Part shown: positions 7,478 to 20,174 of the stretch, piece after piece
Position numbering within the stretch: the stretch's first letter is position 1
Layout: every line of letters begins with the position of its first letter
From: a virus
IMG/VR virus record: IMGVR_UViG_3300046463_000548
Location: 64,001 to 128,000 of that record
DNA length: 64,000 nucleotides
Direction: 5' to 3' (one strand)
Program-made: the position numbers and the translations under genes
Notes under the pieces: generated by a model
Databases searched by the model: none
Seen by the model: only the letters and a program-made list of their open reading frames with translations
What the model was told of the DNA's origin: nothing

Positions 7478-7637
7478 CGCGAAAGTAGACGGCCAACAGT
7501 GCGCCCTGAGGTTCCGTGATCGGTTGGCTTCGTATGAAATCGAAGGCCCGTTCGTTTTGCACGATGACGGCCAATGGTACCGGATCGACCCACCATCGCA
7601 ACTAACGGTCAAGCCGACGCACTTCCGCCTGCTGTAA
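7452..7637 (+). CDS. small hypothetical protein (DUF551-like W...P THF pattern)
   Basis: GAGGA SD; MSDWIPV...KPTHFR. Confidence 0.6.
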   Translation: MSDWIPVADAKVDGQQCALRFRDRLASYEIEGPFVLHDDGQWYRIDPPSQLTVKPTHFRLL

Positions 7638-7639
7638 GC

Positions 7640-7698
7640 GTACACACCGGGATTTACACAACCCGAAAAACGGTCTATAGTACATACGTCGTACACAC
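7640..7698 (+). promoter_or_regulatory. vapBC promoter with GTACAYAC operator-like repeats
   Basis: TTTACA(7653)-17 nt-TATAGT(7676); GTACACAC 7640, GTACATAC 7680, GTACACAC 7691. Confidence 0.7.
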
Positions 7699-7717
7699 AC
7701 GATGTGAGGAACAACGA

Positions 7718-7954
7718 ATGACCACTACACGGGTTTTCAAGAACGGCAACAGTCAGGCCGTTCGTATCCCTGCTGAGCTTGCATATGACCGTACGGATAT
7801 CGATCTTGAAATCGAGCGCGTAGGGGACGAGATTCGCATTCGACCGATTGCCCGACCGCTGACCGGAGTGCTCAGGAAATTCGCGAAGTTCGGTGCAGAT
7901 TTCATGAGCGAGGGGCGCGGTGATCAGGAGCAGACTGAGCGGGAGGGTCTCTGA
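7718..7954 (+). CDS. vapB: AbrB/SpoVT-type antitoxin VapB
   Basis: TRVFKNGNSQAVRIP motif; start re-called at ATG 7718; TGATG coupling to toxin. Confidence 0.92.
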   Translation: MTTTRVFKNGNSQAVRIPAELAYDRTDIDLEIERVGDEIRIRPIARPLTGVLRKFAKFGADFMSEGRGDQEQTEREGL

Positions 7955-8361
7955 TGCCCCGCTACATGCTCGATACCAACATGTGCATCTACCTGATGAA
8001 GAATCAGCCTGAGCAGGTAGCCAAGCGGTTTGCGCAATGTGTCGTGGGCGATGTGGTGATGTCTGCCATCACGTACGCAGAGCTTGAATACGGCGTGGCT
8101 GTTTGCGAAAACCCTGCACGCGAGCGGCGTAATCTTTCATCGCTGATCGAGGACATTCCGGTCGTTCCGTTTGATGCACCGGCCGCCGTTGCGTACGGGC
8201 CGATTCGGCAAGCCACCCGCGACAAGAAAAAGGACCATCTGGACAAGCTCATAGCAGCGCACGCGGTTTCCCTTGACGTTCTGCTGGTCACGAACAACAC
8301 AAAGGACTTCGTGCAGTATCCGGGCGTCCGTCTGGAAAACTGGCTTGATGAAAGCCACTGA
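7954..8361 (+). CDS. vapC: PIN-domain toxin VapC
   Basis: YMLDTN...SAITYAELEYG...DKLIAAHA...LVTNNTKDF...ENW. Confidence 0.95.
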   Translation: MPRYMLDTNMCIYLMKNQPEQVAKRFAQCVVGDVVMSAITYAELEYGVAVCENPARERRNLSSLIEDIPVVPFDAPAAVAYGPIRQATRDKKKDHLDKLIAAHAVSLDVLLVTNNTKDFVQYPGVRLENWLDESH

Positions 8362-10276: not shown

Positions 10277-10786
10277 CTAGTTGGTCGCTTCCGCTTTCAA
10301 CTGAGGGCCGAACGACAGGGGCAGCGGGTCGGCTGCTAGCTCGGTGTTTTTCTGCTCGACCCACAAGCGTAGCTGCGCGGTGTTAGGTGCATCGTAGGAC
10401 AGCGTGAGATGCGCACGGTAGTCCGGGAACGAGTGCTGCAACCCTTCACCCAGCAACTCGGAGTGCAGCCGCTGTAGGTCCGGAGAATCGAGATAGGCAA
10501 CGAGCACCGGCCGCTGCTTGTGATCGAGCCACACCTGCAGGCTAGTCACCGATCCTTTGCACACGCGATCTGCTGGCGGCTTTACACCGAACGGAAGATC
10601 ATGCTTGTGGTAAAGCACAGTCACGTGAAAATCCGTGGAGTGGTTCGGCTTGAACGGCGCACCCGACAGAAAGTTGCCAAGACTCAGGATCGACTGCTCA
10701 TCCGGATCGGCCCACACGTAGAGTCCGGAGCCCGAATCAGCCTCCCGGATTTGATCGTAGAGAATCTGCGCTTCTATCTTGAACAT
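10277..10786 (-). CDS. acb1: anti-CBASS Acb1-like (T4 gp57B-like) 2H phosphodiesterase
   Basis: GLYV, HVTVLY and HSFPDYRAHLTLSY: two HxT motifs in the T4 57B layout. Confidence 0.8.
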   Translation of the reverse strand: MFKIEAQILYDQIREADSGSGLYVWADPDEQSILSLGNFLSGAPFKPNHSTDFHVTVLYHKHDLPFGVKPPADRVCKGSVTSLQVWLDHKQRPVLVAYLDSPDLQRLHSELLGEGLQHSFPDYRAHLTLSYDAPNTAQLRLWVEQKNTELAADPLPLSFGPQLKAEATN

Positions 10787-10898: not shown

Positions 10899-11465
10899 TC
10901 AACTCCATTTGATCGACATGATTTCATCGATGTCCTTTGCTGAAGCCAACTTGGCCTTTAGCTTTGAACGCGTCTGGAAAGCCTCCCACCCTTGTGCGGT
11001 TATGGCTGCGTTTAAGCCCTGAATATCTTTCAGTGTGAAGGGAACCGGGGTGTTATCTGACGATATCCAGTAGAACCCGCTGGGAGTTTCGCCTAGGATG
11101 GAATACGATTGCGCTGCTCTTGCAACAGATGCCGCACTTTCTGCATCAGCCTCAAACTTCTTGGTCACACCCCCCTCTGTAGTGAAGGAGATGTCGCTGA
11201 CCACAGCGGAGTTGTAAGAAGCAGTTATCGTCCTCTTCTGTGCTCCGCGTGCCTGCGACAACAGGAATTCAGGCGAGGGCGGAGATAGCTTGTCGTCATT
11301 TACTGTCCAGCCGCCTTGCACCGCGAGACAGGCTTGCCATTCGTCATGGCTCAGGGCAATCGCTTCTACGCCTTCTGGCACTGGACTGTCAGTGCTATCG
11401 TAGAAGGCAACGATAACCCCATTCTTATCATATGCTGCGTACTTCTGACCCATGTCGGTCTCCAT
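10899..11465 (-). CDS. tail fibre assembly protein (DUF4376-like)
   Basis: Directly follows fibre gene; AFYD...P....ALS.DEW; W...DN..V.FT...A...I.W. Confidence 0.8.
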   Translation of the reverse strand: METDMGQKYAAYDKNGVIVAFYDSTDSPVPEGVEAIALSHDEWQACLAVQGGWTVNDDKLSPPSPEFLLSQARGAQKRTITASYNSAVVSDISFTTEGGVTKKFEADAESAASVARAAQSYSILGETPSGFYWISSDNTPVPFTLKDIQGLNAAITAQGWEAFQTRSKLKAKLASAKDIDEIMSIKWS

Positions 11466-13084
11466 TAATAGCCTATTGCGAGCCAGTTAGCACCTTTCTG
11501 ATCGGCTCCGATAACAGCGGACGAATTTGTGAAACTCACAACTCCGCTGTAGTTGTTGTTGGCAACGTTTCCGGGGCCAAACAAAGAGACGCTGTTTAAT
11601 ACCCTCAAGCAAGCGTTAGGGAACGTAATAGGGAAATTAACGGTGGGGAACGTTTGATTGCCGGGGGTGGTGCCCCACTGGAGAATTAGTCCATCTGGTA
11701 AAACGTCATACCCGTTCCCTGCGAACAGCGTGCCGCTACCTAGTTTTCCGCGCATTGAAAACGGGAACCAGTCCGTCCAGTTAGCACCGTTGTTGTAGCC
11801 TTGTCGCCAGTACGGGGGATACCCACCGACACCGTGACTGTCGCCACCGCCTGTATTCCACGGATACGCGATCTGCGTGATGTCTGAGCCGTGCGCGCCG
11901 GACACACCGTCACCGATGTTGTGAACCCAGATGTTGCAGTTCCAGTTGATCGGCATGTTGGCAGGTAGGTTGCCCGAAGTCGCAATGTACAGCCCAGATG
12001 CAAGCGCGTTGCTGTTCAGATCGTCCGCACTGGTCAGTTGGCGTCCGCTGCTCGTTGACGGGCTCTGAAGCATGCCGACCGCTTGAATCACGCCCGGTTG
12101 CGGCATGTACAGGCCGGAACCACCGTACGCGAGACCAGGTGTGCCCACAGTGGCGAGAGGCGCGCTCGGAGGCGGGTCGATGATCTGCGAGTAGTAAATC
12201 TTCAGTCCCGATTGCGTGGACGAATACAGACGGCAGTGGCTACCAACAGCCGGTGAATTCAGCAGCGGGATATTGCTGTACGTGCCATCGTTCGTCACGT
12301 TCAGATTGAACCGGTAGTTAGCGCCTGACGTAACGATGCTCGACACTGACCGGAAAAATCCGTCCGGTGTTTCGAGGACCCACTGACGATTAGCAGATGC
12401 GAGCGCAGCAGGCGTGAACAGGGCCGGTGAAAACTCAACCCATGTCGTGGACGAGTTCAGGACCGGTGCCGCGTTGTTTACCTGATAGTAGGTCGTGCCC
12501 AGTGTCCACGCTGAGTCACTCGAATTTTGCAGGAGCGACGAATCACCTGAGGGGCTTAGCTCGCGCACAACGTACAGCGGAACATCGGGGTTAGCCGATA
12601 CACCGGGCGGGTACACGTCGGACCACTGGTAGATGTCCAAGACCGCAGGAGGTGCACTGACTGTGTCGATCTGGAACACGGCGACCGACTGCTCCAACTT
12701 CAAAAGGCAGTTGAACGTGTAGCTCGTTACGACGTTCGTGCCCAAGCTCGAATACTTCGTTTGCGGCTCGTCAAACACACCCTTTGCAAACATCACACCG
12801 CCATCCAGATACAGCGCGACTTCACCGAACTGGAAAGGACCGGCAGCGACCGGAATCTGACAGATGATGTTGAGCGTGTTGTTGCCGATGTATTCGTAAC
12901 TCGTTGGCACACCTGTGAAAAGCAGGTTGCCATTCAGACCGGCATCAGTGCGTTGCGGATCGTAGCCATAGGCCGATCCAACTTCAAAGCTGGTGATGTG
13001 AACGTAGGGACCTTCAGGCATCGCGGTTGACGCGACAGCAAGCCCCGCATTGGTGATCACCAGAAGTGGTGTGCCGTTACTCAT
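11465..13084 (-). CDS. tail fibre protein
   Basis: N-terminal ITNAG baseplate-attachment domain; knob-like DLN...SGLY segment; C-terminal LPDGLILQWG...FPITFPNAC. Confidence 0.88.
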   Translation of the reverse strand: MSNGTPLLVITNAGLAVASTAMPEGPYVHITSFEVGSAYGYDPQRTDAGLNGNLLFTGVPTSYEYIGNNTLNIICQIPVAAGPFQFGEVALYLDGGVMFAKGVFDEPQTKYSSLGTNVVTSYTFNCLLKLEQSVAVFQIDTVSAPPAVLDIYQWSDVYPPGVSANPDVPLYVVRELSPSGDSSLLQNSSDSAWTLGTTYYQVNNAAPVLNSSTTWVEFSPALFTPAALASANRQWVLETPDGFFRSVSSIVTSGANYRFNLNVTNDGTYSNIPLLNSPAVGSHCRLYSSTQSGLKIYYSQIIDPPPSAPLATVGTPGLAYGGSGLYMPQPGVIQAVGMLQSPSTSSGRQLTSADDLNSNALASGLYIATSGNLPANMPINWNCNIWVHNIGDGVSGAHGSDITQIAYPWNTGGGDSHGVGGYPPYWRQGYNNGANWTDWFPFSMRGKLGSGTLFAGNGYDVLPDGLILQWGTTPGNQTFPTVNFPITFPNACLRVLNSVSLFGPGNVANNNYSGVVSFTNSSAVIGADQKGANWLAIGY

Positions 13085-13139
13085 TTACATACCTCTGTTA
13101 ATGATTGAAGTGCGGGCTCTCGCATTAGTGGTTTACCCG

Positions 13140-13480
13140 CAAAATGTTGATAAAATCCATTATGTCAAGTTCTGCTGCAACGCACCAAATGAATGAAATC
13201 AAATACATAGGTCAAGTAGCTGACCCTTTAATGAGTAAAAAGCGACAAAACAACACTTATTGCGTGCCCAGGCAACCAATATGCAATTGTTTTTCTGTGC
13301 AGCTATTGACAGTTTGTGCAACCCGTGCAGGTGCGAGTCATCGATGTCGAATCGAGCGGAAAAAGTTATCCACACGGCACTCAAGCCGCGTAGTTATCCA
13401 CGTGCAGGGGAGTTGTTCACAATGCGTGAGGCTTATCCAACGCTTCGCGACTTATGCACAGCGTTGGAGCGTTATGCGTA
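13140..13480. other. oriC-like locus: IHF site, AT-rich tract and phased DnaA-box array
   Basis: TTATCCACA 13366, TTATCCACG 13394, TTGTTCACA 13413, TTATCCAAC 13433, TTATGCACA 13452, TTATGCGTA 13472; TATCAACATTTTG (- strand, 13140-13152) matches WATCAANNNNTTR. Confidence 0.65.
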
Positions 13481-14593
13481 CTGCTGCAGGATGTCGGAGA
13501 GGCGTTCCATGTTCGTGTGCAGCCGGAAGTCTTGCCGCTCGCGTGTCGTGTGCACGTAGCCAGCCGGACGTGTCGAACCATCGAAGAACACCAGGTACAG
13601 ATACTTGTAGCCCTTGTGCAGGGCCCCGCGAGCCTTGCGCGTAATCTCGTCTGTCACGCTTCCCCTATCGGCCGGGGGCTCGCTTGTGAGGTCGATCACC
13701 AGACCGCGCTTTTCGATCCACAGATCAGGCGCGTAGTCGCGTCCTTCCGAGCGATACGTTGGGCCGGATGTATCGATAGATTGCGCAGCGATTCCCTCAG
13801 TCAGGAGCCACGGAATCGCCACCTTTTGGGTGCCAACGACCAACCACGAAGCGCCGCCCGAATCGAGCCGTTGTGGGGCGTTTTTGAAGGCCGCACGCAG
13901 CGCTTCGACGGGTTCCAGAGGCGCGACCGGCAGCGCCTTTTTCTTGATACGCACGGGCACCGGCAGATCGTCTTCAACTTCGATCTTCAGGTTGTGTGTT
14001 GAGTCCCGGAGCTTTTCCCGCACCTCCCGCCGTTGGCTCGAACTGGTGCGTTTGCCGTTGCTGCGTTCTAGCTCGTTGCGCCGGTTTGATTCCACGCGTT
14101 TGGCTATCGCTTCCGGACGTGATCGCGGATCGACGGATGTCCCGTTGGAGCGTTCAAGCTCGCGATCCATGATCATTTCTTTGTACGTCTTCGAGCGACG
14201 TAGCGCGCGGCTTCGGTTTCTGAGTTCCGGCCGCTGCGCTACGTTCGTGTACTTGCCGCCTGATCGTTCTAGCTCGTTGCGTCTGCGCGTCTCGATCTTC
14301 GCCGGGTCTTTCCACGAGCACGCAGCAGAGCAGTAGCTGATGTACTTCAGTGCGCGTTTATCGAACCGGACCGTTTCGTTGCAGCCCGGAGTCTTGCACG
14401 TTGATCGCGCGTTAGGAAACAGGTGCGTGTAGAACTCAAGCTGATTGAACCGTGAGCCCAATGCGTCCTGCAATTCACTAAACAGTTCCGCGTCTATACG
14501 GTTGCGCAGCCATGCACTGAATCCACCTGGTCCGCTAGGTTTGGATAGCTGCAGCAGCCCCCTCACATCCTTTATAACAAGTTTCTGGTCCAT
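13472..14593 (-). CDS. homing-endonuclease-like DNA-binding protein (Zn finger, three basic repeats, degenerate PD-(D/E)xK domain)
   Basis: CKTPGC...YCSAAC; (N/R)ELERS(G/N)G repeats x3; YAPDLWI...VIDLTS. Confidence 0.65.
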   Translation of the reverse strand: MDQKLVIKDVRGLLQLSKPSGPGGFSAWLRNRIDAELFSELQDALGSRFNQLEFYTHLFPNARSTCKTPGCNETVRFDKRALKYISYCSAACSWKDPAKIETRRRNELERSGGKYTNVAQRPELRNRSRALRRSKTYKEMIMDRELERSNGTSVDPRSRPEAIAKRVESNRRNELERSNGKRTSSSQRREVREKLRDSTHNLKIEVEDDLPVPVRIKKKALPVAPLEPVEALRAAFKNAPQRLDSGGASWLVVGTQKVAIPWLLTEGIAAQSIDTSGPTYRSEGRDYAPDLWIEKRGLVIDLTSEPPADRGSVTDEITRKARGALHKGYKYLYLVFFDGSTRPAGYVHTTRERQDFRLHTNMERLSDILQQYA

Positions 14594-14623
14594 CTACATA
14601 TCCCGCAGTTTGCTTGCATATAG

Positions 14624-14631
14624 CTCAAATT
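14624..14631 (-). promoter_or_regulatory. putative phage promoter motif AATTTGAG
   Basis: Same core recurs at 28866, 34658, 42847 and 62644; about 30 nt upstream of the start codon. Confidence 0.45.
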
Positions 14632-14725
14632 GGGGTATGTGCGTGTAGCGCTTCAGATGTGTTGGGCTATACAACGTGCAATCTATATAGCGTTCGGCTG
14701 CTTTGCTTTGCTTTGCGTTTTGTGT

Positions 14726-15844
14726 TCAGAACAGACGGCTAGACTGTATGTTCAGTGCACGTTGCTGCTGATCCGATTGTAGACCGAACACGTAGTTGCG
14801 GAACCCATAGTTGATATCGAACATCACAGGGAACGACGGTTGACTGACCTTAGAGCCGGTTACCGTCAGTTGCTCTGTATCAGCCCATGACAGAGATATG
14901 ATCCCTGATTGGGTAGTTGAGTTGTTGGATGAGGGTTGCAGCGTCCCCTGTGTTTGGTTGTTACCAGCGAATCCTGAGAGCATCTTGATGAAGTACTGTC
15001 TCTGTGTAAGCTGTGCAGTAGTCGGTGAGTTAGCTGGGGTCATAAGCTTGCCGTTGATGAGGAACTGCGATCCATACTGAACAAACGACGTGCCCATTGA
15101 TCCGCTTTGTGTTCCCATGAATCCCCAGTAGGCTGACGTATCTGTCATGTTTACTGTTGAACCTAGCAGCTTGACGTAGCCATGGCTCGATGAATCCATG
15201 TTCCTCACTACATCTGCATAGATCGAATACAGAGCGATTGACGGAGTGGCTGGTGCTTGGGGGAGATTCAGGGCCACCCCTTCAAACGTGATAGACCCGC
15301 CGTACCTGTTGATTCCGTATAGAACCCATTGCGCGTTTGTTTGGCCTGTTGAGAACGTGATAGTCGGTCTCTGGAGGTCTTGCATATACTGTGATTTACA
15401 CTGTGTTCCGGAGACCAGCGTGTCGAAATCCCCGTAGTTGGAATCTCCGTAGAACGTGAATACGAGGTTAGCTCCGGTGTAGATCGCAACGTCTGACTGA
15501 GGGAACGCAAAGGTCTGGGAGGCGAGTAGCGCGATATACACAGAGCCCGTTATCTGCTGATTCGGAAACAGCGATTGGGCTGCTTGTACGGCTTTGGCTA
15601 TAGTCTGGAACGGCTGTGCTTTGGTACCCGGGTTCGTGTCTGAACCTGAGTTGGACACGTAGAAAGCGGTGAACGAACCGAAGTAGGAGTGGCTCCCAAC
15701 GTACACGCCATCTGCATTAGATTGAACGAGGTTACCGGGTTGCTGTGAAATCGGCACCTGAGTCGGGGGGATGGTTGCTGACGGGTCCATCGGCCGCGTT
15801 ACCTGAAGGGCTGAATCGTAAAACGAAGGAAGCTGGTATGTCAT
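14726..15844 (-). CDS. virion tail/baseplate-associated protein
   Basis: FYVSNSGSDTNPGT..QPFQTI.KA (DUF1565-like) motif; S/T/N/G-rich; position in tail module. Confidence 0.7.
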   Translation of the reverse strand: MTYQLPSFYDSALQVTRPMDPSATIPPTQVPISQQPGNLVQSNADGVYVGSHSYFGSFTAFYVSNSGSDTNPGTKAQPFQTIAKAVQAAQSLFPNQQITGSVYIALLASQTFAFPQSDVAIYTGANLVFTFYGDSNYGDFDTLVSGTQCKSQYMQDLQRPTITFSTGQTNAQWVLYGINRYGGSITFEGVALNLPQAPATPSIALYSIYADVVRNMDSSSHGYVKLLGSTVNMTDTSAYWGFMGTQSGSMGTSFVQYGSQFLINGKLMTPANSPTTAQLTQRQYFIKMLSGFAGNNQTQGTLQPSSNNSTTQSGIISLSWADTEQLTVTGSKVSQPSFPVMFDINYGFRNYVFGLQSDQQQRALNIQSSRLF

Positions 15845-17093: not shown

Positions 17094-17102
17094 GGATCAT
17101 CC

Positions 17103-18950
17103 TTAACCTATCGAGCTACGTGACGGCTGGCCTGAATCGATCTGCTGCTGACGCTCTGAATAGAACACGTTGATAACCGGAGGCTGAGCCAGCGTGTTGT
17201 ACTGGATAGGCGTGTTAGCTATCGTTGTGGGCGTCGGTCCCGAAGGCGTCAGTGTCCCGTTGTCCGTGAACGTGTAGGTAGCTGCGGATGTTGCCGCAAC
17301 CGTCGTCAGAATCCCCAGACTTGCGCCCGGTGCACGTCCCCACACTGTGTACGACGCAGCGTCCATCACTGCGGGCCATGTCAGCGTGATTCCGTAGTCG
17401 GCGGTTGTCGAAACGACCTGAGGGAATACCCAGTTCGTTGGGGTTCCCGACTGCCCATTCGTCAGCGTCGTTGAAATCGCATAGCCGTACACCAGTTCAC
17501 CAAGCGATCCGCCACCTGGAACGAGCGTGTACGTGATTTGCGGGCTTGTTGGAGCCGTCACGATCATCGGCCCTGTCGGGGACAGCACCTCTACGTACGA
17601 AATCTGTCCGGGGCTCGATTTGAATGCTGCGCGCTCAAGATCGGATTCATAGAAGTTCGTCCGAAGCAGGCCGGGGCGTGGAGCAAACAGCTTTATGATC
17701 GCGTCCGTCACCTGCGTCTGCACCTGTTGCGGAAGCGCAGAGTTGAAGATGTAGACGTTCATCTGCACGGTGCGCGGGACCGCAATGGGCTCCTGCCACA
17801 GGAAATAGCATGAGTACATGCTCACAGCCTGACAGTAGTCCGTGAACTCCTTGATCTGCGCTTGTGACCATGGGCTGGTGGTGAGTCCCGACACGCGGAT
17901 CACGTTCATCCAGCGGTAGTCGCTCGGATTGATTTCGCGCTGCGCTTGTGTCACCGCATCAACGATTCCGGGAAACGTTGCGACGGTCGCGAGATACTGC
18001 GATTTTGTGACTGCTGACTGATACGTGCCGAACCCGCCTGATGCCACGTTTTTGTACGCGAGAGTCGGATTCTGGTTCGATCCGCCTTGCGGATTGTCAG
18101 TCATCACGCCATAGATCAACGGGAATCCGGTGACCGTGACTTGTGTGCCCGATGTCGTCAGCGAGTTGCCGTTTGCACCATGAGTCACCGGGTACGTGAT
18201 AACGACCGTGTCCGAGACTTGCGGAATCGAGCCGAACGCTTGCAACGTGCCGAACTGCGCAGACGTTCCGCCCAGGTTGCCGAACTGCAGGAGCAAACGC
18301 CCATCGCTTGTCGTAATGTCCGCGTATCCAGGAAGTCCATCGAAGTTCCACAGACCGCCATACGATTTCGGGATAATCGTGCTGTTGATCTGAACAGTCA
18401 CGTCCTGATCAGAGACCACAAACGCATCCTGCGAGCCCACAAACGTCTGGCGCTCGGTGCCCAGGCCGTTCATCTGGTAAGAGTACAGTTGCCCCTCATA
18501 CAGCGTCACAGCCAGCGGAATATTCGCTTTGAAGGTCAGCGCGTCACGGTTGAAGAAGTAGTTACCAGCGGCTGAGAATTGCGTGTAGGGCGGAAGCGTG
18601 ACATCGACCGGACTCGTGATCGACGCGGGAGCCTGAGCGGGCAGACAGCGAGCAATACGCAGGCCCTGCATTTGCGTGATTGACAGGATCGCTGAATCTG
18701 ACTGTGCGGTTTCAGCGAATGCGTCCTCCGCTTCGCGGATCACACGGCCTTGTGCAAATGTGCCGACAGTCGAAACCAGTTCGATTAGCGTCTGCGAGGT
18801 CTGCGTCGTGAGGTTACCGACCCAAACAGGTTTCTGTTGCAAATAGGCTTGAAACTGCTGCACGAATTGATCGACATCGGCAGTCAGGTCGCTCAGTACA
18901 AGCGTTACTGCTGGCGTCGATGTGGTGCTTGAGGTAGCGGGCGTAGACAT
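17103..18950 (-). CDS. baseplate wedge subunit (T4 gp6/gpJ-like)
   Basis: AF.ETAQSDSAI, YPVTHGANGN, GGS.., SAVTKSQY motifs. Confidence 0.85.
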   Translation of the reverse strand: MSTPATSSTTSTPAVTLVLSDLTADVDQFVQQFQAYLQQKPVWVGNLTTQTSQTLIELVSTVGTFAQGRVIREAEDAFAETAQSDSAILSITQMQGLRIARCLPAQAPASITSPVDVTLPPYTQFSAAGNYFFNRDALTFKANIPLAVTLYEGQLYSYQMNGLGTERQTFVGSQDAFVVSDQDVTVQINSTIIPKSYGGLWNFDGLPGYADITTSDGRLLLQFGNLGGTSAQFGTLQAFGSIPQVSDTVVITYPVTHGANGNSLTTSGTQVTVTGFPLIYGVMTDNPQGGSNQNPTLAYKNVASGGFGTYQSAVTKSQYLATVATFPGIVDAVTQAQREINPSDYRWMNVIRVSGLTTSPWSQAQIKEFTDYCQAVSMYSCYFLWQEPIAVPRTVQMNVYIFNSALPQQVQTQVTDAIIKLFAPRPGLLRTNFYESDLERAAFKSSPGQISYVEVLSPTGPMIVTAPTSPQITYTLVPGGGSLGELVYGYAISTTLTNGQSGTPTNWVFPQVVSTTADYGITLTWPAVMDAASYTVWGRAPGASLGILTTVAATSAATYTFTDNGTLTPSGPTPTTIANTPIQYNTLAQPPVINVFYSERQQQIDSGQPSRSSIG

Positions 18951-18960
18951 GAATTAAGCC

Positions 18961-19392
18961 TTACGTATTTGTTGTACTCACACTGAAACTGACGGCGGAA
19001 GGCTGTAGATTCAGATTGATGGTGAATGCGATACGCACCTGATACCCCGGTAGCGTCATATCAGGCGTCACATACGAGTTTGAGTTATCGAGCGTGATGC
19101 GTGGCTCCCACCGCTGTAGAGCCTGGATCATCGCCACGTTCATTTTGTTCGCGGTTGATTGATCAATGGGCTCTTGCAGGAACTGGTACCAGAGCGAGCC
19201 ATACAGGGGCTGAAAGATTCGGGAGCGTGCGCCAATCGCACAGTTGCAGATGTTGTAAATTGAGTTCTGCACAGCCAGAACGTTGGGCAGTCGGTCGGGG
19301 GCCGCATTCAGCGTGACAAGACTATTTACGTCGATCCACGTTGCCCCGTTCAGTGAGATTTGGTAATTCGTTAGTTGTGCCATAGCTATCAA
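18961..19392 (-). CDS. gp25/GPW-like baseplate (sheath initiator) protein
   Basis: G.R..IFQPLYGS..FLQEPID...LQRWEPRI. Confidence 0.88.
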   Translation of the reverse strand: MIAMAQLTNYQISLNGATWIDVNSLVTLNAAPDRLPNVLAVQNSIYNICNCAIGARSRIFQPLYGSLWYQFLQEPIDQSTANKMNVAMIQALQRWEPRITLDNSNSYVTPDMTLPGYQVRIAFTINLNLQPSAVSFSVSTTNT

Positions 19393-20174
19393 ATCTGCGG
19401 GGTAGGTGTGTTGGTATTTCGCTGCGACCCATCATCGTCATACACGTGGAAATGCTCGTTGTAGAACGTGCGCATGTTCGCCATCGTTTGGCCATTGCCG
19501 GTGCTCGTGCTGTCCGTGATGTCGCCGCCAGCCGAAATCGTTGTGCTTGCGACGACTGGGCCATTGAACTGGTGGACAGATGCTGTATACGACGCGGGGC
19601 CTGACGCGTTCAGGTTGAACGCTGAACAATTGATGTTCGCGGTACCCGTCACCTGGAACTGCAGATTCCCTGCAACCTGATGCGTTTCGGTGGCTTTCAC
19701 CACCTGAACAACGTTGCCCGCTTGATCGTAGGAAATCGTGTCGCCTGACTGATGGGTCCACACCCACGTACCGGCTGACATATCGACTTGCAGCGAATTG
19801 CCTTGCGGATCGACAAAGCCCCATCGTGTGGGTACGTTGAACCATGGGTGCGCGTTAGGCTGCGTGTAGAGCGTCTGATACAGAGGCTTGTGCTCATCCC
19901 CGTTCTGAAGCTCTACCATGACCGTAGACCCCACCTGAGGAAAGCCGTAGACCCCATAGGGGCCCTTCGGGCCTGTACCGAAACCAAAGGGGGAATCCTT
20001 GATTGCGCCGATCCACGGAACAGCGCCCTGCGTCGGATCGAACAGGCCGGGTACCGTTGCCTGGACCCTGGCGATGCCCAGTGAGTCCGTGTTCACAGAT
20101 ACCGTGCCAGCGTAATAGCCTTGCCCGTAGTCTTCTTTGTGTTGAACAGCATCGTTGATTGTGTTGAGCGGCAT
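19389..20174 (-). CDS. baseplate central spike (gp5/gpV-like)
   Basis: OB-fold RVQA.VP...PQVGS.V.V...GD..KP; beta-helix; C-terminal HxH metal site (EHFH). Confidence 0.88.
   Translation of the reverse strand: MPLNTINDAVQHKEDYGQGYYAGTVSVNTDSLGIARVQATVPGLFDPTQGAVPWIGAIKDSPFGFGTGPKGPYGVYGFPQVGSTVMVELQNGDEHKPLYQTLYTQPNAHPWFNVPTRWGFVDPQGNSLQVDMSAGTWVWTHQSGDTISYDQAGNVVQVVKATETHQVAGNLQFQVTGTANINCSAFNLNASGPASYTASVHQFNGPVVASTTISAGGDITDSTSTGNGQTMANMRTFYNEHFHVYDDDGSQRNTNTPTPQI

Follow-up and report, generated by a model that had tools for sequence, protein, structure and literature searches.

Does a large soil phage carry, inside its late gene block, a set of binding sites for the DnaA protein of its host, and what would such sites do there? 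The question is raised by a 387-bp gap separating two minus-strand genes in the window, the 64,000-nucleotide stretch analysed here (positions 64001-128000 of a linear 153,706-bp IMG/VR record with 54.7% GC and an estimated completeness of 63%); in record coordinates the gap lies at 77.1-77.5 kb. A first-pass annotation had taken the gap for a mimic of a bacterial oriC or, alternatively, a datA-like sink. Because the window sequence recurs, letter for letter, in two more metagenome samples, the locus is no assembly artefact. By weak DNA similarity and by its tail-fibre protein, the phage groups with the phiRSL1-, BCSR5- and Motura-type jumbo phages of Burkholderiales, and no close relative was found in the isolated-phage collection. 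The tail-fibre gene (539 aa, 11465-13084, minus strand, with Phage_tail_fib and Gp53-like_C matches) lies directly downstream of the cassette that contains the gap. At the end of the structural block, window positions 10277-10786 encode a 169-aa Acb1-type anti-CBASS 2H phosphoesterase (Pfam Acb1, E = 4e-17).

Direct reading and a pattern search place six co-oriented DnaA-box-like 9-mers with the motif TTRTNCACA on the plus strand at 13366-13480. As first reported, they start at 13366, 13394, 13413, 13433, 13452 and 13472 and are spaced by 28, 19, 20, 19 and 20 bp. Measured against TTWTNCACA, the terminal box TTATCCACA (13366-13374) and the box TTATGCACA (13452) have no mismatch, TTATCCACG (13394) and TTGTTCACA (13413) have one each, and TTATCCAAC (13433) and TTATGCGTA (13472-13480) have two. 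The last of these is the weakest, overlaps the stop codon of the minus-strand 373-aa ORF and has no counterpart in the related locus L005. On the minus strand the terminal box reads TGTGGATAACTTTT, with the same letters in L005. The motif is drawn from ten intergenic boxes, those of the window and L005 combined, in which T1, T2, T4 and C6 are invariant, position 3 alternates between A and G, and position 5 varies among C, G and T. The latter corresponds to the free N of the DnaA-box consensus TTATNCACA, and box variation is concentrated there and in the A/G alternation at position 3; G at position 3 (A3G) is the normal variant in the DnaA boxes of high-GC Gram-positives. As for clustering, the six boxes form the densest such cluster anywhere in the 153.7-kb record, but at least four co-oriented boxes in 120 bp were also reached by 17 of 300 simulated genomes (P ~0.06) under a conservative null that keeps local composition at the 300-bp scale. 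By itself, therefore, the box count is only marginally unusual.

The comparison with L005, rather than the box count, is decisive for the view that the array is real. L005 encodes a homologue of the 373-aa protein that is 88% identical, followed by a 558-bp gap before its tail-fibre gene. This gap contains the boxes TGTGCATAA, TGTGCACAA, TGTGAACAA, TGTGAATAA and TGTGGATAA (positions 5136-5232 of L005; spacings 20, 20, 19 and 29 bp), which occupy the same positions and use the same words as the window array while the spacers have diverged. Box columns are identical at 41 of 45 positions and array spacers at 22 of 65 (91% vs 34%; Fisher P = 1e-9). The AT-rich DNA at 13140-13320 is likewise identical at 160 of 181 positions (88%), whereas the stretch between it and the array (13321-13365) retains 20 of 45; this unconstrained spacer nevertheless keeps its length, at 45 nt in the window and 44 nt in L005. 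The two flanking genes are just 51-57% identical at their four-fold degenerate sites. Since the identity of the boxes and of the AT-rich module is far above that of the spacers and the four-fold sites, this single pairwise comparison, between the two diverged genomes that bear the array, indicates that the 9-mers and the module are under purifying selection and that the DNA between them is not.

The array belongs to a piece of DNA that comes and goes among relatives. L002 has neighbouring proteins that are 49-58% identical to those of the window; there, a 370-aa gene and the tail-fibre gene lie 24 bp apart, and this junction implies that about 1.64 kb (13085-14725), absent from L002, is extra in the window. 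The site between these two genes is an insertion hot spot with several states. Homologues of the 373-aa protein in L006-L008 are 72% identical, and their stop codon abuts the tail-fibre ATG with zero gap; in L009 the homologue is 71% identical and is followed by a 236-bp gap that contains the AT-rich module only, inverted. Among 60 further related tail-fibre loci that were fetched, L035 alone carries a homologue (39% identical, abutting the tail-fibre gene), and no box cluster was found in any of them. Thus, among about 60 related tail-fibre loci, the array is carried by the window and L005 only; the relatives without array and insertion include complete genomes of 217-238 kb, and a genome-wide search of four relatives with a completeness of 97-100% (217-230 kb) found not one pair of exact phased boxes. 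The absence of insertion and array from about 60 relatives means that the array is not the essential origin of this family. It is accessory and lineage-specific, and the conservation expected of it among relatives holds for the boxes in L005 but not across the related loci, with the module standing alone in L009. The 9-mers nonetheless exist, match the DnaA consensus and are conserved against a diverged background.

The gene that adjoins the array (13472-14593, minus strand) encodes a 373-aa DUF7487-type protein, in which a zinc ribbon and three basic NELERSxG repeats are accompanied by a C-terminal domain with a PD-(D/E)xK (Hjc-like) fold. The ORF itself has no Pfam match, and the family name comes from distant homologues that match DUF7487. 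Its predicted structure has a mean pLDDT of 82, and the best structural matches of the C-terminal domain are all PD-(D/E)xK nucleases, such as archaeal Hjc, at a weak E = 0.02. This fold, together with the DUF7487 relatives, ruled out the gene as a Rep initiator. Homologues occur on metagenome contigs in differing contexts, and the gene is sporadic at one conserved site between conserved genes (window, L005, L006-L009 and L035, and no other related loci), so that it behaves, as far as its distribution tells, as a free-standing gene of the homing-endonuclease type. The PD of the catalytic motif is kept, and the (D/E)xK lysine is a threonine in P0001-P0004, where the motif reads D-L-T, and a lysine in P0005, P0006 and L035, with E-V/I-K in distant homologues; the putative nuclease may thus be inactive in the P0001-P0004 clade. 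The protein is nevertheless under strong purifying selection, being 88% identical in amino acids between the window and L005 as against 57% at four-fold sites, and may have been domesticated for DNA binding. Its nuclease domain has a paralogue at G000:C1:27565-27795.

On the other side of the array lies the conserved AT-rich module (13140-13290; no assigned strand), which is 74% identical to the inverted copy in L009. The AT-rich tract reported earlier is indeed there, with a GC content of 35-40% over 13100-13300 against 54.7% genome-wide, and 13141-13240 is the second least stable 100-bp duplex of the 153.7-kb record. Both sites proposed for IHF are present as well: TATCAACATTTTG on the minus strand of 13140-13152 fits the consensus WATCAANNNNTTR, and AATCAAATACATA at 13197 is IHF-like with one mismatch. 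The consensus is retained in two of the three copies of the module. Among the conserved blocks of the module are two palindromes with variable centres, TTGATA-N10-TGTCAA (13147-13168) and TATTG-N2-TGCC-N2-GGCA-N2-CAATA (13258-13281), which would fit dimeric DNA-binding proteins and a module that works in either orientation, as in L009. There, at L009:3120-3259, the module sits alone, inverted and without the array between the same two genes, which suggests that it behaves as an independent, orientation-free unit. Within the record no second copy was found. Five 18-mer matches in IMG/VR (L010-L014) and one in a bacterial coding region (L132) were set aside as chance matches because only short words are held in common. 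A small protein encoded in the module was also rejected: a 39-residue stretch is common to the window and L005, but the differences are mostly amino-acid-changing and the frame stops early in L009. An RNA element fared no better, as the locus has no Rfam match at gathering thresholds and two sub-threshold snoRNA matches only at permissive ones, and the consensus of the module folds weakly with little covariation.

Between module and array, three related words lie on the plus strand at 13295-13329, namely CTGTGCA (13295), TTGACAGTTTGTGCA (13306-13320) and CGTGCA (13324). TGTGCA does occur at 13296 and 13315, but the two are not the inverted half-boxes as which they had been described: one member belongs to a copy of the early-promoter word of the phage, TTGAC-N4-TGTGCA. 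This middle word (TTGACA-N4-TGTGCA) is a copy of the -35 element and spacer, lacks a -10, is directed into the array and has been kept in L005; a sigma-70 promoter scan of 12900-14800 found none. The record holds 17 copies of the word TTGAC-N4-TGTGC. About 12, all on the plus strand, have both a TAYAAT -10 and a conserved leader and are strong early promoters of the sigma-70 type. The members of this family, noted at window 2350 and 13306 and at G000:C1 4212, 4749, 5368, 6910, 7696, 8673, 17123, 58448, 63785 and 129266, are near-identical (TTGACG-TTTGTGCA-N7-TAYAAT, with a leader ending in GGAG), several more copies lack the -10, and the family resembles the mobile promoter cassettes of T4-type phages. 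The same words admit another comparison: in the origin regions of Burkholderia cenocepacia, CTGTGCA 7-mers are reported to form clusters alongside DnaA boxes, AT-rich blocks and an IHF site (Du et al., PMC4948915), and the presence of CTGTGCA, TTGTGCA and CGTGCA at 13295-13329 is a lead in that direction and not a test.

The wider gene content bears on whether this phage might replicate as a plasmid. Outside the window, three genes in a row form a parA-parB-rep-like module (G000:C1:13025-16828 = L141:4526-8329). They encode ParA (427 aa; AAA_31, E = 5e-37; PHROG ParA, E = 1e-56), ParB (343 aa; ParB_N and HTH_ParB) and a 411-aa Rep-like protein (G000:C1:15593-16828) that is 62% identical to the product of the gene after parAB on a 235-kb Paraburkholderia contig; the look-alikes of the Rep-like protein in the protein atlas (replication protein O, RepC, RepL and HTH_36 clusters) serve as a lead only. 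ParA proteins of Paraburkholderia show 84-86% identity to that of the phage, whose host is therefore probably Paraburkholderia or another member of the Burkholderiaceae. Searches of 19 related phage records, five of them at least 97% complete and 14 partial, found no ParA homologue. The window itself carries a vapBC toxin-antitoxin pair (7574-8361), a MazE/AbrB-type antitoxin of 126 aa followed by a PIN-domain toxin of 135 aa. As gains of this lineage, parA-parB-rep and vapBC make a plasmid-like state plausible, and the former suggests a jumbo phage-plasmid. The phage-plasmid state that the first-pass annotation had raised is strengthened by these genes.

The captured replicon also appears to have its own cis sites beside rep. 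CTGGAA repeats flank the gene and are common to the plasmid homologue L142, not to the phage relative L143. Downstream of it, the half-parS-like words GTTTGTTTCACGG and CGTGAAACA (L141:8390-8480 and L143:13880-14000), kept between these two phages, are candidate centromere or iteron sites. Because these separate repeats flank rep, a plasmid-type origin is more likely there than 60 kb away at the array. No repeated CG-centred 16-bp palindromes of the Bsr parS type were found in the record. The only other cluster of box words in the record consists of TTATGCACA, TTGTGCACC and an inverted TGTGGACAA (L141:4241-4275, G000:C1:12740-12775); it is located some 250-290 bp upstream of parA, and L143 has conserved it whereas L142 lacks it. 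L143 also encodes, at 17100-19802, a DnaB-type helicase with an intein that contains a LAGLIDADG domain.

What, then, binds the array, and to what end? Because the box-recognition residues are identical, the E. coli consensus has been used for the DnaA boxes of B. cenocepacia (Du et al., PMC4948915). Together with the fit of the 9-mers to that consensus, free position included, and with the finding of no gene for DnaA or for a DnaA domain IV in the 153.7-kb record (an estimated 63% of the genome), this makes host DnaA the most economical binder. We infer that DnaA binds the array and, over all possible roles together, consider such binding reasonably probable. Of the host-DnaA locus proposed at the outset, one part thus stands, in that the words are selected, match the consensus and lie beside a meltable module that bears an IHF site; the oriC and datA layouts do not.

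An origin is the most familiar use of DnaA boxes. In an auxiliary origin, DnaA on the array and IHF would open the AT-rich module for theta replication, in a plasmid-like carrier state or a first round, a role that we regard as unlikely. With E. coli oriC the locus does share boxes, a nearby easily melted AT-rich stretch and an IHF consensus, and where one or two boxes with at most two mismatches mark a bacterial oriC, the window has two perfect and two one-mismatch boxes. An origin would also account for an array adjoining the second least stable 100-bp stretch of the record, for the 88% conservation of the module and the retention of its IHF consensus in two of three copies, for the preserved array-module spacer (45 vs 44 nt), for parA-parB-rep and vapBC in this lineage alone and for the echo of B. 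cenocepacia origin parts (PMC4948915) in CTGTGCA, TTGTGCA and CGTGCA at 13295-13329. The fixed spacing and the extreme meltability fit an origin as well as they fit an accessory role, which counts against the latter. The layout, though, differs in most other respects. E. coli R1, next to its unwinding element, reads TGTGGATAA, whereas the window boxes, read from the AT-rich side, read TTATCCACA, the opposite orientation. The window boxes are separated by gaps of 10-11 bp as against 2-3 bp in E. coli oriC; the least stable DNA (13141-13240) lies about 125 bp from the nearest box instead of directly beside the boxes, and the IHF site lies about 215 bp from it. The basal unwinding system has at least three DnaA-trios within 0-16 bp of a DnaA box (PMC8287927), but no TAG/GAT-type run lies beside box 13366, and the flank where trios would sit, up to 16 bp from this terminal box, is not conserved in L005 beyond CTTTT, consistent with the 20 of 45 identities over 13321-13365. 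The GC skew of the record, which had been suggested as a guide, is flat and uninformative, no strand-switch is present, and the surrounding late genes, all on the minus strand, form a 68-kb co-directional block whose edge is 2 kb from the locus. Add to this that the module occurs alone and inverted in L009, that the array is found in no other relatives besides L005 and that a plasmid-type rep with its own repeats lies 60 kb away, and the description as an oriC mimic has to be given up. Sinks are the other precedent: E. coli datA and the DnaA-box clusters of Bacillus subtilis are DnaA sinks outside the origin, and datA also needs IHF, on which its stimulation of DnaA-ATP hydrolysis depends. By analogy, boxes outside an origin could in principle lower free or active DnaA here too. 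In datA, however, IHF binds between essential boxes, whereas the IHF consensus of the window (13140-13152) lies about 215 bp outside the array, so the locus is not datA-like in layout. Were phage copy to stay low, the titration by five boxes would be slight, which counts against the accessory reading favoured below.

The 9-mers could instead be sites of a protein of the phage or its plasmid module, whether the 411-aa Rep-like protein (the array then serving copy control, as at P1 incA), ParB (the sites then forming a dispersed centromere, as in N15), or the DUF7487 protein, with a likeness to DnaA boxes and nothing more; we give this the same low credence as the auxiliary origin. A direct-repeat period of 19-20 bp is typical of iterons, and the co-oriented repeats of about 19-21 bp recall P1 incC and incA and the Burkholderia c2 and c3 iterons, which are 19-21 bp (PMC4948915), in a phage that also has parA-parB-rep. 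The window unit, though, is conserved over 9-10 bp only, with a DnaA box as its core and spacers that are 34% identical; the adjoining gene encodes a nuclease fold rather than a Rep, and rep is 60 kb off, flanked by other words (CTGGAA and GTTTGTTTCACGG/CGTGAAACA). For ParB it may be said that some Burkholderia parS were called DnaA boxes by Ori-finder (PMC4948915), that the gain of par-rep coincides with the array and that no Bsr-type parS palindrome occurs elsewhere in the record. Bsr ParB centromeres, however, are repeated 16-bp palindromes with a central CG (PMC5450999), and the window boxes are asymmetric words with no palindrome. The DUF7487 neighbour has three predicted DNA-binding repeats, but its homologues occur without the array in L006-L009 and L035. 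The only other box-word cluster sits upstream of parA and is kept in L143 while missing from L142, which could point to a phage-encoded binder and counts against DnaA. Against all three proteins, it is improbable that an arbitrary word would match TTATNCACA, free position included, and the same words are arrayed in many unrelated phages. Finally, the locus might have no dedicated role at the DNA level and be a by-product, whether of a terminator or RNA structure past the end of the nuclease gene, of the decay of an early-promoter cassette or of homogenisation by recombination. A terminator-like hairpin followed by a T-run lies between boxes 1 and 2 (13370-13393, minus strand), a second hairpin overlaps boxes at 13436-13468, the early-promoter word without a -10 adjoins the array, and the site is an insertion hot spot. 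Yet in L005 the 9-mers are conserved and the hairpins are not, for which reason a terminator or hairpin role was rejected; Rfam matches are lacking, folds are weak with little covariation, most differences in the small module ORF alter amino acids and its frame is cut short in L009, and an identity of 91% vs 34% requires selection on the words themselves. Such a by-product is the least probable of the explanations considered here.

Arrays of this kind have precedents among phages, and the earlier view that nothing comparable had been described was too strong. In T5-like phages, the injection-stop (iss) region contains a conserved set of eight DnaA boxes, for which a role in replication was judged unlikely (Davison, bioRxiv 10.1101/866236). 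Like these, the window array consists of consensus or near-consensus boxes that lie off the known or likely origin, in a conserved non-coding part of a lytic-type phage genome and amid surroundings that diverge. The T5 boxes differ in being paired 3 bp apart within inverted repeats of the terminal repeat, whereas the window has five or six single co-oriented boxes 19-20 bp apart on an internal cassette by a mobile nuclease gene in one sub-lineage. In IMG/VR, 56 contigs carry three exact TGTGNAYAA words spaced by 19-20 bp, against a rough chance expectation well below one, and at least 119 carry triples at 21-22 bp, so that phased triple co-oriented boxes are found on at least 175 contigs in total (L076-L131, L144-L223). 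A spacing of 19-20 bp is not specially favoured, 21-22 bp triples being at least as common. What these arrays share with the window is a non-coding location and at least three TGTGNAYAA words in the same orientation, spaced by about two helical turns. Most of them, however, lie in main control regions, as in an abundant family in which the array follows a run of GTGCA repeats in a non-coding gap of about 1 kb beside terS/terL, while the window array lies in a late operon by a homing-endonuclease-like gene. We count both the T5-like iss boxes and the phased IMG/VR arrays as precedents for an accessory use of DnaA.

Altogether, we tentatively favour a model in which the array is an accessory set of host-DnaA sites on a non-coding, lineage-specific cassette with a role other than that of an origin, be it titration, sensing or a local block; titration or control is more likely than the firing of an origin. 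According to this model, the cassette would have landed between the mobile DUF7487 nuclease-like gene and the tail-fibre gene, and DnaA would be loaded at each of its five or six sites, which share one orientation and follow one another at intervals of about two helical turns. Because gaps of 10-11 bp are too wide for the tight site-to-site contacts of oriC, we read the array as an accessory landing pad for DnaA. What DnaA would bring about there is speculative: the landing pad might sequester or sense host DnaA as phage copies build up or, alternatively, block or regulate local transcription. The adjoining AT-rich module would be a separate unit of protein-binding palindromes.

A bolder combination of these elements is a jumbo phage-plasmid of Burkholderiaceae that has captured a Paraburkholderia parA-parB-rep and a toxin-antitoxin pair and that has, separately, an auxiliary origin, made up of the box array and the meltable module and fired by host DnaA, on a cassette associated with a homing endonuclease. 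We find this combination doubtful, more so than the auxiliary origin taken by itself. If it were true, origin-like DNA would move between phages as cargo of a mobile nuclease gene.

For the accessory array that we favour, the comparisons indicate an element that is functional and not a hidden copy of oriC, and that belongs to a recurrent but poorly understood kind: conserved DnaA-box arrays recur in many phages, from T5 to numerous IMG/VR contigs. The array described here offers a clean test object for that kind, as it is accessory and hence deletable, as its pair of diverged copies marks the functional bases and as the likely host genus is culturable. With the array and plasmid genes in one phage, the use of host DnaA and the persistence as plasmids of large lytic-type phages become directly testable.
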